Source of the DNA: a virus
Taxonomy: Duplodnaviria; Heunggongvirae; Uroviricota; Caudoviricetes
Length of the DNA stretch: 4,346 nucleotides
Virus record (IMG/VR): IMGVR_UViG_2700989363_000004
Reading direction: 5' to 3' (one strand)
Program-made: the position numbers and the translations under genes
Shown here: in pieces, positions 1-4,346 of the stretch
Numbering within the stretch: position 1 is the first letter of the stretch
How the letters are laid out: the number at the start of each line of letters is the position of its first letter
The notes under the pieces: model-generated
Seen by the model: only the letters and a program-made list of their open reading frames with translations
Databases searched by the model: none
Told to the model about the DNA's origin: nothing

Positions 1-215
1 TCCGGATCGCTGAAAAACAGGCTGAGCACGGTGTACGTCAGCCCGGAAAAGTGCATATCCAGCAGAACATCATGAAAATAATGGGTACTGTAAAAGCGGT
101 GCCAGTCGGCATACTCCGTGGATGACATCCCGGCAAGCATGGCACGCCAGTCGGGTCGCCCCATCTCACGCGCCAGTTTCAGGGCAAAACTCAACTCACC
201 GTCGAACGCTTTCCC
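1..215 (-). CDS. T: T-frame portion of the tail assembly chaperone G-T fusion (lambda gpT-like); partial, continues beyond the window start
   Basis: Hand translation of the minus strand in the -1 frame relative to G, starting at the GGGAAAG heptamer, gives an open frame with no stop down to position 1: GK/AFDGELSFALKLAREMGRPDWRAMLAGMSSTEYADWHRFYSTHYFHDVLLDMHFSGLTYTVLSLFFSDP. This matches my memory of lambda gpT. There is no ATG of its own near the 5' end, as expected for a product made only by frameshifting from G. Not in the ORF track because it lacks a start codon. Confidence 0.85.
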
Positions 216-613
216 GCAGAAACAGGCTCTGCAGGCCCGGCGTCCTCTGCCTGTTCAGGAGCATCATTCACCACAAACTCATACATACCGGACAGCCGGT
301 ACACCACGTTTTCAGCATGAGAAATTGCCTCCGTGGGCCAGGTGGTAAGCACTTCCTGCTCAATCTGTTTAACGGCTTCATTCATGGAAGGCAGCTTTGT
401 CTTCTGCGGATGGTTATGCCACAGGGACATCGCCACCACAAAAGCGCCGGTTCTGATGGCGTCTTCCACAGTAAACTTCCGGTTGCTGTCTGACTCCGCC
501 TGTTCTGCCTGTCGTTTCATCAGGGCGAGATGCTCAATACGCTGCAGGGCTGACAGTTCAGAAAGCGTGACGGTCACACCGTTATGTTCAAATGATTCGG
601 TTTTCAGGAACAT
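191..613 (-). CDS. G: Tail assembly chaperone gpG
   Basis: 140-aa ORF (MFLKTESFEHNGVTVTLSELSALQRIEHLALMKRQAEQ...SAGKRSTVS) is near-identical to lambda gpG as I recall it. ATG at 611..613 (plus cat) is preceded by a GGAGAG Shine-Dalgarno. TGA stop at 191..193. Contains the frameshift heptamer near its 3' end. Confidence 0.95.
   Translation of the reverse strand: MFLKTESFEHNGVTVTLSELSALQRIEHLALMKRQAEQAESDSNRKFTVEDAIRTGAFVVAMSLWHNHPQKTKLPSMNEAVKQIEQEVLTTWPTEAISHAENVVYRLSGMYEFVVNDAPEQAEDAGPAEPVSAGKRSTVS
209..215 (-). other. -1 programmed ribosomal frameshift slippery heptamer G GGA AAG (G to GT recoding site)
   Basis: Plus-strand ctttccc at 209..215 is GGGAAAG on the minus strand. In the G reading frame it reads G GGA AAG, which is the known lambda G-T slip site. 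It lies 6 codons before the G stop codon (191..193), and the -1 frame stays open for the rest of the window. Confidence 0.85.
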
Positions 614-2355: not shown

Positions 2356-2709
2356 TCAGCGACGACGGTTAACGGCAGGCGGTACGCCCCGTCCAAGCCA
2401 GAGATGACAGCTTCCGCCATCATCCGGCGTAACCCGATCTACCCAGAAGTTTTCCTCACCGATGGTCAGCGTGTCTCCGCGCCGCAGCTGCCGCACATCA
2501 TCAGTCCGGACAAACAGGGACGGGCTGGAGCCTTCAACGCGCACGCCCTGTCCGGCATAGCTGATATTTTCAGGGTCATCAAAAACACCACGTATCACAG
2601 CACCGGACTGCTCACCGGATGTCATGGTGGCTGACGTTCCCATGTACCCGCGTATCGTTTCATCGGCGCGGGCAATAGCAGCATCGAACAGGTTATCGAA
2701 ATCAGCCAC
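2356..2709 (-). CDS. FII: Head-tail joining protein gpFII
   Basis: 117-aa ORF MADFDNLFDAAIARADETIRGYMGTSATMTSGEQSGAVIRGVFDDPENISYAGQGVRVEGSSPSLFVRTDDVRQLRRGDTLTIGEENFWVDRVTPDDGGSCHLWLGRGVPPAVNRRR is near-identical to lambda gpFII. The initiation codon read from the sequence is GTG (plus cac at 2707..2709), preceded by GGGAGG (complement of 2714..2719). TGA stop at 2356..2358. Confidence 0.93.
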   Translation of the reverse strand: MADFDNLFDAAIARADETIRGYMGTSATMTSGEQSGAVIRGVFDDPENISYAGQGVRVEGSSPSLFVRTDDVRQLRRGDTLTIGEENFWVDRVTPDDGGSCHLWLGRGVPPAVNRRR

Positions 2710-2720
2710 AGCGCCTCCCG

Positions 2721-3107
2721 TTATTGCATTCTGGCCAGGCCACGCTCTGTCATTTCAGCTGCCACACCGGCAGAGACACGAAACGCCGTTCCCGGCAGCA
2801 CAAATGCCACAGGTTCATCCCGCGTGGCGTGAAGTGCATCAGTATGCAGCGTCACCAGTGCCACAACCGTGACCAGATCAGCCGTATCAGTCACGGTATC
2901 CGGCTGCGCTGATACCACCTCATTTTCATGTCCGGTCAGCGCATTTTCCGGGCTGATAGGGGTATCCTGATCGGCAGTGTCATCAAGCTCCTCTTCCAGC
3001 TCTGCCACACGGAGCGCCAGTTCTTCTTTCGTTCCCGTCAAACTGACATCGCGGTTCAGTTGCTCACCCAGCTCCTGAAGACGGGCAATCAGTTCATCTT
3101 TCGTCAT
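2721..3107 (-). CDS. FI: DNA packaging / head assembly accessory protein gpFI
   Basis: Translation MTKDELIARLQELGEQLNRDVSLTGTKEELALRVAELEEELDD...HTDALHATRDEPVAFVLPGTAFRVSAGVAAEMTERGLARMQ matches lambda gpFI at both termini, with a divergent acidic linker in the middle. Start chosen at ATG 3105..3107, preceded by a strong GGAGGAG Shine-Dalgarno (complement of 3112..3118); the longer track ORF from 3146 would start inside the upstream hairpin. TAA stop at 2721..2723. Confidence 0.9.
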   Translation of the reverse strand: MTKDELIARLQELGEQLNRDVSLTGTKEELALRVAELEEELDDTADQDTPISPENALTGHENEVVSAQPDTVTDTADLVTVVALVTLHTDALHATRDEPVAFVLPGTAFRVSAGVAAEMTERGLARMQ

Positions 3108-3128
3108 GGACTCCTCCACAGAGAAACA

Positions 3129-3146
3129 ATGGCCCCGAAGGGCCAT
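3129..3146 (-). promoter_or_regulatory. Perfect 7-bp stem with cUUCGg tetraloop in the E to FI intergenic region (mRNA structure)
   Basis: Plus-strand atggccc cgaa gggccat at 3129..3146 reads AUGGCCC-UUCG-GGGCCAU on the minus-strand transcript. It begins 2 nt after the E stop codon (3149..3151) and lies upstream of the FI Shine-Dalgarno. No long U-tract follows, only the U-rich UUGUUUCUCUG. Confidence 0.6.
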
Positions 3147-3148
3147 GA

Positions 3149-4174
3149 TTACGCCAGTTGTACAGACACGAACTCATCAGGGTCAGCCAGCAGCATCAGC
3201 GGTGCTGACTGAATCATGGTGAACTCACGCGCCGGATCGCCGGATGTCTTCCAGTTTTTCGGATAACGGGGAGACGCATTAATACCCTCACTCAATGCAT
3301 CCGCATCCTGAATGCAGCCATAGGTGCGCAGACCGCGTGCATGAGTGTTACCCAGCACCATCGTGTTGTCCGGCAGGAAGTTCTTTTTGACGCCGTTTTC
3401 CACGTACTGTCCGGAATACACGACGATGGCCACATCGCCATACATTCCCTTATAAGACACCGCTTTGCCCAGGTCTTTCACCGCTGTCTCCAGCTCGGAA
3501 TGAGAGCCGCGACGGGTATCCAGCTTATCCTTGACGGCCTTGAAGGAACGGAACAGCGCCCAGCCTTTCGGATCAAACACGATGATATTCACCACACCGC
3601 TGGCGTTCAGCGCGTAGGCTTCGATATCGTCGGTCGGGTCATACGTGGACTTGTCACGCTTGCTCCACGCCGTGCCGCCGGACTGCGTGATGTTGTTGGC
3701 CGCACTGCGGCCCATATCCACCTCAACCGGATCGAAGGCTTCACCGGTCATGGTGTATTTGCCCTTAAGCACGGCAGAAACTGCCTGCATCTCTTCCACC
3801 TGGGCAATGGCCAACTCTTCGTCACGCATGTTCTGCATGATGATGCGACGGCGACGGTAAGCCGGGTCCGCCAGATTCTGCGGATCTTCATCCGGCAGGC
3901 GACGCAGGGTCATCTGCGGATTCACTTCATGCTTGGGTTTGACATATCCCGGCGTAAATTCAGAGGTGGAGCCGCCACGGGAACGGATAACCTCACCGGA
4001 AACAATCGGCGAAACGTACAGCGCCATGTTTACCAGTCCAGGAATTTGTGAGAGATAGACTTTCTCTGTAGTGAAGGGATAGCTCTCACGGAAAAAGAGA
4101 CGCAGAAACAGCGGATCAAACTTAAATTTCTGCTCATTTGCCGCCAGCAGCTGGGCGGTTGTGTACATCGACAT
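3149..4174 (-). CDS. E: Major capsid protein gpE (HK97-fold)
   Basis: Translation MSMYTTAQLLAANEQKFKFDPLFLRLFFRESYPFTTEKVYLSQIPGLVNMALYVSPIVSGEVIRSRGG...TMIQSAPLMLLADPDEFVSVQLA (341 aa) is essentially lambda gpE. Start chosen at ATG 4172..4174 (MSMY...); the track ORF extends 9 codons further upstream (MRLFLRDFF) into the intergenic hairpin. TAA stop at 3149..3151. Confidence 0.97.
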   Translation of the reverse strand: MSMYTTAQLLAANEQKFKFDPLFLRLFFRESYPFTTEKVYLSQIPGLVNMALYVSPIVSGEVIRSRGGSTSEFTPGYVKPKHEVNPQMTLRRLPDEDPQNLADPAYRRRRIIMQNMRDEELAIAQVEEMQAVSAVLKGKYTMTGEAFDPVEVDMGRSAANNITQSGGTAWSKRDKSTYDPTDDIEAYALNASGVVNIIVFDPKGWALFRSFKAVKDKLDTRRGSHSELETAVKDLGKAVSYKGMYGDVAIVVYSGQYVENGVKKNFLPDNTMVLGNTHARGLRTYGCIQDADALSEGINASPRYPKNWKTSGDPAREFTMIQSAPLMLLADPDEFVSVQLA

Positions 4175-4187
4175 AAAAAAATCCCGT

Positions 4188-4213
4188 AAAAAAAGCCGCA
4201 CAGGCGGCCTTTA
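4188..4213 (-). terminator. Intrinsic-terminator-shaped hairpin between D and E (GC stem followed by U7 on the transcript)
   Basis: The minus-strand transcript reads AAAG-GCCGC-CUGU-GCGGC-UUUUUUU: a 5-bp GC stem (plus 4195..4199 pairing with 4204..4208), a 4-nt loop, and seven U residues (plus A-run 4188..4194). The flanking A and U tracts could extend the stem. It sits between the D stop (4230..4232) and the E start (4174). Confidence 0.5.
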
Positions 4214-4229
4214 GTGATGAAGGGTAAGC

Positions 4230-4346
4230 TTAAACGATGCTGATTGCCGTTCCGGCAAACGCGGTCCGTTTTTTCGTCTCGTCGCTGGCAGCCTCCGGCC
4301 AGAGCACATCCTCATAACGGAACGTGCCGGACTTGTAGAACGTCAG
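4230..4346 (-). CDS. D: Head decoration protein gpD, C-terminal 38 codons (partial; the 5' end lies beyond the window end)
   Basis: Hand translation of the minus strand from 4346 gives [38 protein letters not shown] followed by TAA (plus tta at 4230..4232), which matches the C-terminus of lambda gpD. Not in the ORF track because the start codon is outside the window. Confidence 0.9.

Follow-up and report, generated by a model that had tools for sequence, protein, structure and literature searches.

A conserved stem-loop behind the capsid gene E of a lambda-type late region, a candidate protective structure in the late mRNA

How can neighbouring genes on one long late transcript yield their proteins in very different amounts, and does a small hairpin between two of them contribute to this? 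The question is raised by the virus record IMGVR_UViG_2700989363_000004 (Caudoviricetes), of which a stretch of 4346 nucleotides (nt), here called the window, was analysed. The window is a lambda-type late region on the minus strand, to which all coordinates without a genome name refer. It carries the end of D, followed by E, FI, FII, Z, U, V and G, and is ~94–95% identical to lambda-like phage genomes. The lambda virion requires many more copies of the major capsid protein E than of FI, and between the two genes lies a perfect stem-loop, AUGGCCC-UUCG-GGGCCAU (3129..3146). The comparative data presented here show that this E-FI hairpin is an RNA element kept by selection. Among the functions that have been proposed for it, protection of the 3′ end of the capsid message fits best.

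A stable hairpin in the E-FI gap

Gene E (3149..4174; 341 codons plus stop, according to the open reading frame list and the lambda annotation) encodes a protein that is 97–99% identical to E of lambda-like phages and ends with the stop codon TAA at 3151..3149. Two nucleotides, UC (3148..3147), separate the stop codon from the stem-loop, which is equal to lambda 7163-7180 and consists of the 5′ arm AUGGCCC (3146..3140), the loop UUCG (3139..3136) and the 3′ arm GGGCCAU (3135..3129). The stem is followed by a U/C-rich tail, UGUUUCUCUGU (3118..3128), which was also picked up in a loose terminator scan, and, 11 nt past the stem, by the Shine-Dalgarno sequence of FI, GGAGGAG (3111..3117). FI itself (2721..3107), a DNA-packaging chaperone identified from the open reading frame list and the alignment to lambda, where it starts at 7202, begins with AUG at 3107..3105, 21 nt behind the hairpin. 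The 41-nt E-FI gap is the same as lambda 7161-7201 without any differences, and the gap plus flanks shows a single base mismatch to lambda 7134-7214. The hairpin is situated in the middle of an operon, with ~15 further late genes 3′ of it in lambda. In the lambda reference records no feature is annotated at this position.

A perfect 7-base pair (bp) UUCG hairpin located 2 nt past the E stop codon and ahead of the FI ribosome site had been described in a sequence-only reading of this DNA, and both the coordinates and the folding agree with it. The isolated 18-mer folds with −12.3 kcal/mol (z = −3.29), and 1 of 200 shuffled sequences was as stable. When folded in context, the stem was kept in the minimum free energy structure as well as in the centroid structure, with 101 nt and with 201 nt. 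The mean pair probability of the stem was 0.92–0.96 in five contexts and exceeded 0.99 for the five inner pairs, and the loop is closed by a C-G pair (C-UUCG-G, 3140..3135). The structure level of the 101 nt around the hairpin, on the other hand, was that of shuffled sequences (z = −0.19). Moreover, a perfect hairpin of ≤ −12.3 kcal/mol was found in 3.0% of 5830 background stretches of 70 nt, and the E-FI hairpin ranks third among the distinct sense-strand hairpins of the window, the two stronger ones being located in coding sequence. By itself, the structure is within chance expectation. What goes beyond chance is its intergenic position in a 41-nt gap together with its conservation.

An Rfam scan over the hairpin revealed no family; the only match, to PhotoRC-I, scored 14.2 bits with E = 4, below the gathering score of 45, and is noise. 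A processing site for RNase III, an enzyme that requires a double-stranded RNA of ~20 bp or some two turns of the helix, was considered as well and rejected, because the stem has just 7 bp and folding in context yields no long helix.

Conservation of the hairpin among E homologues

We searched viral as well as genome collections for loci encoding homologues of E and inspected the sequence 3′ of each stop codon. Hairpins were detected in each sequence separately; MAFFT cannot align stems that differ in sequence, and RNAalifold recovered just 4 stem pairs from 13 distant intergenic regions. A perfect hairpin of ≤ −9.6 kcal/mol was present within 70 nt of the stop codon in 92% of 141 distinct sequences, compared to 9.6% of the 5830 background stretches. 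With a threshold of ≤ −12.3 kcal/mol, these values were 63% and 3%, respectively.

Among the enterobacterial relatives, with 84–100% protein identity, are sequences from Escherichia, Kluyvera, Klebsiella, Enterobacter, Citrobacter, Trabulsiella, Buttiauxella and Pluralibacter, which together gave 108 distinct variants. Here, the five inner pairs GGCCC/GGGCC (10 nt) showed a pairwise identity of 0.998, whereas the last 20 codons of E reached 0.94, 0.98 and 0.60 at codon positions 1, 2 and 3 and the flanking intergenic bases 0.27–0.45. The stem core is therefore more conserved than the adjacent coding positions. The outer pairs, by contrast, vary in sequence: one was found as GC (14), AU (13), GU (13) and UA (1), and the other as UA (33), CG (6) and UG (1). 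The two positions were paired in 95% of the cells, compared to 30–57% with slid partners. The covariation score was unmatched in 500 shuffles, a control in which relatedness is uncorrected. In addition, G-U wobbles occur beside an intact helix while A-C pairs are absent, which indicates that the structure belongs to the sense mRNA strand.

In more distant relatives with 39–46% protein identity, which are Pseudomonas-type and marine gammaproteobacterial prophages, the equivalent place is occupied by unrelated GC stems of 7–12 bp. Closely related pairs among them again show compensatory changes, for instance GGCGCGC/GCGCGCC versus GGCGCAC/GUGCGCC. Conservation with compensatory changes in related phages, which the sequence-only reading had named as a check, is thus seen in the presence of 92% as well as in the covariation of the outer pairs, and the position of the hairpin is kept down to 39% protein identity. 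Taken together, these data show that the E-FI hairpin is an RNA-level element under purifying selection on the transcript strand.

As a control we used the strongest hairpin of the window, which is located inside E (3413..3448; 16 bp including G-U, −18.6 kcal/mol) and spans the codons for GMYGDVAIVVYS. Synonymous changes in the relatives leave 11–15 of its 16 pairs and are not compensated. This hairpin was rejected as a functional element, since its pairing erodes in relatives, and is probably a by-product of coding.

The sequence-only reading had put emphasis on the cUUCGg tetraloop, and this part is not supported by the comparison. UUCG was found in 53 of the 108 enterobacterial variants and a UNCG loop (UUCG, UGCG or UCCG) in 78; the other loops include UGUC, UGUU, UUAG, AUUC and UUUC. 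Only the first loop position (U) is well conserved, with an identity of 0.94, compared to 0.45–0.62 for positions 2–4. In the distant hairpins, just 3 of 21 loops were of the UNCG type. Conservation is confined to the GC-rich stem, with the pair that closes the loop, and UUCG, although frequent, is dispensable. The structure, its position and its stability, on the contrary, stand as they were described, and the comparative data support a selected RNA element on the transcript strand.

Finally, the spacing differs between the two sides of the hairpin. The distance between stop codon and stem varies from −2 to 41 nt, with a spacer of 10–17 nt in other lineages, while the distance between stem and start codon is nearly constant (13–30 nt, medians of 15–22 nt by identity group). 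A strong Shine-Dalgarno sequence of the GGAG type directly follows the stem in nearly all relatives that have the hairpin.

Comparable stem-loops in other phages and operons

Stem-loops at this place have been annotated before. In P22, a stem_loop feature is located behind the coat gene 5 (NC_002371.2, 6102..6119): AGGGGC-UGCG-GCCCCU, with a 6-bp GC stem and −12.1 kcal/mol. The layout resembles that of the E-FI gap, with the stop codon followed by 5 nt, a tetraloop stem, the U-rich sequence UUCUUUAU, GGAG and the AUG of the next gene. However, the stem sequence is different, the capsid protein has no recognisable relation to E and the downstream gene is orf69. The RefSeq note on this feature reads 'putative; similar in location to stem-loops in phage HK97 and phage lambda'. 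As this note names lambda, phage annotators had already recognised the lambda element.

In the lambdoid phage HK97, a 'putative terminator' follows the major head gene 5 in a 33-nt gap (NC_002167, 5192-5213). With GGGCGGG-GAAA-CCCGCCC it has 7 bp and −15.9 kcal/mol and differs from the lambda element in having a GNRA instead of a UNCG loop and an uninterrupted UUUU past the stem. The hairpin in front of HK97 gp12, which is followed by UUUCUUUUUCC, AGGAG and AUG, also resembles the lambda E-FI junction. Similar elements flank the major tail gene gp12 of HK97 on both sides, whereas in lambda E is bracketed and not V.

The E-FI hairpin fits the stem-loops annotated behind the capsid genes of P22 and HK97 and is an already known kind of phage late-operon stem-loop. 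In addition, capsid gene 10 of T7 is followed by the terminator Tphi, and in Mu a hairpin is found behind gene T. The capsid genes of HK97, T7, Mu and P22 are unrelated in sequence and the genes downstream differ, but each is followed by a hairpin. These analogues in unrelated phages support a link of the element with the capsid gene and not with FI. What the present analysis adds to the view of the annotators is a measure of the selection acting on the stem, the dispensability of UUCG suggested by the relatives and a conserved partner hairpin upstream of E, described below.

With T7 Tphi and the leaky terminators TJ, TF, TG and TH of phiX174, too, the structural gene with the most abundant product in a polycistronic late unit is immediately followed by a hairpin, which allows read-through and stabilises the upstream RNA. 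These are demonstrated terminators with proper U tracts, whereas the E-FI hairpin has a weak U tract and meets an antiterminated polymerase. For T7, inefficient terminators have been described as a strategy for balancing expression (PMC9163698), and in phiX174 disruption of the TJ hairpin speeds the decay of the shorter transcripts (PMC3335065).

The malE-malF and papBA operons of Escherichia coli resemble the E-FI locus in that a conserved, stable stem-loop stands between a highly expressed upstream and a weaker downstream cistron. The malE-malF element is a longer palindrome of the repetitive extragenic palindromic (REP) type. In both operons these structures are protective, and papA, the gene for a major structural subunit, has a hairpin on its 5′ side and a terminator hairpin on its 3′ side (PMC5927463), similar to the bracketing of E by the D-E and E-FI hairpins. 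There, the role was established by measurements of decay, while for E-FI it is proposed from comparison.

Full-text literature searches, including one with the sequence string of the hairpin, found nothing on the E-FI hairpin or its function. A study of lambda small RNAs places its new RNAs LPR1 between ea10 and ral and LPR2 near 6S, both away from E-FI, and the searched parts of its supplementary tables gave no lambda late-gene levels (bioRxiv 10.1101/2024.10.31.621285).

Possible function of the E-FI hairpin

The sequence-only reading had offered three functions: a 3′ stabiliser of the capsid mRNA, a partial attenuator, or a device that uncouples translation of FI from that of E. Of these, the 3′ stabiliser is the best fit. 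Accordingly, our favoured reading, to which we give about an even chance, is that of an intercistronic stem-loop at the 3′ end of the capsid cistron which protects the late mRNA, transcribed through it, as a 3′ structure. As in malE-malF, a conserved and stable structure separates a strongly expressed cistron from less expressed ones downstream of it. The lambda late transcript is made by a Q-modified, terminator-resistant polymerase, so that the hairpin would mostly be read through, fold afterwards and act in the RNA. After an endonuclease cut further downstream, or when a transcript occasionally ends there, the GC-rich hairpin would block 3′-to-5′ exonucleases. We infer that the D-E part of the message might then outlive the part containing FI and the genes beyond, which would help to establish the large excess of capsid protein. 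The hairpin in the D-E gap may serve D likewise, or cap the 5′ side of the E message. If this is true, the element would help one antiterminated late transcript of more than 20 kb to give hundreds of E per handful of accessory proteins, complementing translational control. It would also offer a compact, portable element for the engineering of phages and operons, and the comparative result makes its function straightforward to test.

Several points weigh against a protective role. Since the stem begins 2 nt past the stop codon, each ribosome terminating on the heavily translated E would melt it. Differences in the expression of lambda late genes were reportedly traced mainly to translation initiation by Sampson et al. 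in 1988, which would leave little room for an effect of decay. The near-constant distance from stem to start codon, together with the variable one from stop codon to stem, would be just as compatible with a function at the ribosome site downstream. Moreover, no hairpin was found behind the capsid gene of P2, nor 3′ of the capsid gene in a clade of E homologues with ~30% identity, in which the capsid gene and the next gene abut or overlap.

A leaky intrinsic terminator or attenuator, in which the hairpin and its U-rich tail stop some of the polymerases, or all of them when Q is missing, would lower transcription of FI and later genes or make it strictly dependent on Q. We consider this unlikely, though it has real precedents in T7 Tphi and phiX174, the HK97 annotators labelled the analogous element a putative terminator, and canonical terminator-like hairpins are present in the lambda late gaps D|E, I|J and lom|stf. 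The terminator scan matched the 7-bp stem with 5 GC pairs, the 4-nt loop and the tail TGTTTCTCTG. In most lambda-like variants the stem is followed by UUUUCUCUCU, and a few relatives have 7–8 U. However, the U tract of the window and of lambda is interrupted right at the stem (UGUUUC), and the tail UGUUUCUCUG satisfies the loose scan even though its U run is broken there. Terminator-like matches in the window numbered 4, compared to 3.4 ± 2.1 in shuffled sequences. Over the 10 nt that follow the stem, the mean number of T drops from 5.9 in lambda-like to 4.5 in other enterobacterial and 1.3 in distant sequences. The distant homologues retain the hairpin without a U tract (none has ≥5 T), and in 16 of 21 the Shine-Dalgarno sequence follows 1–4 nt past the stem. 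The resistance of the Q-modified polymerase to terminators and the position in the middle rather than at the end of the transcription unit also speak against termination.

The conserved distance to the start codon raises another alternative, a translational uncoupler or insulator. In this case the hairpin would prevent ribosomes that finish E from sliding on to reinitiate, and it may also fix the local fold such that the downstream site keeps its own rate. Both the spacing (13–30 nt on the start codon side versus −2 to 41 nt on the stop codon side) and the strong Shine-Dalgarno sequence past the stem are in line with this, as are the abutting or overlapping genes of the hairpin-less clade, a coupled arrangement. 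On the other hand, constant spacing is also expected in a compact genome if spare spacer lies upstream of the hairpin. When the stem was disrupted or deleted in silico, the accessibility of the FI ribosome site was hardly altered (0.34 in the native sequence versus 0.33–0.43); the 3′-arm mutant alone gave ~0.15–0.28. Furthermore, the hairpins of P22, HK97, Mu and T7 precede genes unrelated to FI, and a matching hairpin stands between D and E, the proteins of which are needed in equal amounts. An uncoupling role therefore seems improbable to us.

The position just ahead of the FI ribosome site, with its conserved spacing, would suit a 5′ protective hairpin. If an endonuclease cut between the E stop codon and the stem, the FI-FII-Z-U-V RNA would begin with a stem-loop, which would slow the 5′-end-dependent RNase E as for papA. 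The papBA operon provides a precedent, with a 5′ hairpin after cleavage by RNase E (PMC5927463), and the D-E hairpin stands in the same relation to E. Nevertheless, this is very unlikely here: with 2 nt between stop codon and stem, lambda offers almost no single-stranded target for the cut, and FI is not required in especially large amounts.

That the hairpin has no RNA function at all, being either a palindrome that arose by chance or an element acting in the DNA (for protein binding or recombination, for example), is hardly credible, because the comparably strong hairpins in 3% of 70-nt stretches and the conservation of the inner 10 nt in sequence, beyond pairing, are outweighed by the 92% presence versus 9.6% background, the distant stems that were replaced entirely with pairing kept, the covariation and strand-specific G-U pairs that point to RNA and the coding-region control that was not maintained, so that the comparative data largely refute it. 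A DNA-level or antisense element was also looked for and rejected: neither strand has a promoter-like site, and the G-U pairs fit the sense strand alone.

A second hairpin between D and E

The D-E gap contains a canonical terminator-like hairpin, AAAGGCCGC-CUGU-GCGGCUUUU followed by UUU (4188..4212, −11.7 kcal/mol), which is identical in lambda, where it occupies 6097-6118. It is placed 18 nt past the D stop codon and 13 nt ahead of the E start codon. A hairpin of ≤ −9 kcal/mol upstream of E was present in 84% of 102 distinct regions, distant relatives included. With both the D-E and the E-FI hairpin conserved, the E cistron is bracketed by two conserved stem-loops. Sub-threshold Rfam matches to isrK and Leu_leader at 4188-4283 overlap the D-E hairpin.

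The two hairpins might work together. In that case, a long-lived capsid message with a stem-loop at each end would be released when the antiterminated late transcript is processed, a differential-decay module like that of papA. Such a bracket would be of ancient origin and selectable as a unit, and would have been kept in phages with the lambda-E type of capsid from Escherichia to Pseudomonas. We regard this proposal as tentative and rather doubtful.

E has no recognisable Shine-Dalgarno sequence (4175..4187), in contrast to FI with its strong GGAGGAG. Its start codon is preceded by ACGGGAUUUUUUU in lambda-like and by ACGGGAAAAAUCU in other enterobacterial relatives, directly past the D-E hairpin.

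When the 32 strongest perfect hairpins of lambda 1-23 kb were located, 6 turned out to be intergenic, in gaps that make up ~3% of the sequence: D|E, E|FI, L|K (two), I|J and lom|stf. The hairpins in the L|K, I|J and lom|stf gaps are located at 14157-14184, 14219-14238, 15460-15485 and 19612-19633, and two of these have U tracts.

Two further hairpins were seen in coding parts of the window. One of 9 bp, CCUGCAGAG-CCUGU-UUCUGCGGG (213..235, −11.9 kcal/mol), is located close to the 3′ end of G and directly followed by AAAG; its lambda equivalent at 10089-10111 has −14.1 kcal/mol. The 3′ arm ends in GGGAAAG, which we take to be the slippery site of the G-T frameshift. Inside FII, a 10-bp coding hairpin, GGAUGAUGGC-GGAA-GCUGUCAUCU, is found at 2402..2425 with −12.9 kcal/mol.

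A start codon within the stem and lambda sequences in unrelated assemblies

The first three bases of the E-FI stem are AUG (3144..3146), in frame with FI and 13 codons upstream of its start codon. In at least one GenBank record, PV340541.1 of phage mEp332 (26434), FI is annotated from this AUG, 2 nt past E. An N-terminal extension of FI starting at an ATG or GTG in the stem was considered and rejected: its frame agrees with that of FI in lambda and in one relative from Enterobacter and differs in others, it lacks a Shine-Dalgarno sequence and its start is buried in the stem. Annotation of FI from the stem AUG is likely an artefact of gene callers and an error to watch for.

During the collection of E homologues, near-identical copies of lambda E were also found on short, low-coverage contigs of Kitasatospora, Bradyrhizobium, Paenibacillus, Akkermansia, Prevotella and other unrelated assemblies. 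These look like contamination of the libraries with lambda DNA rather than prophages.

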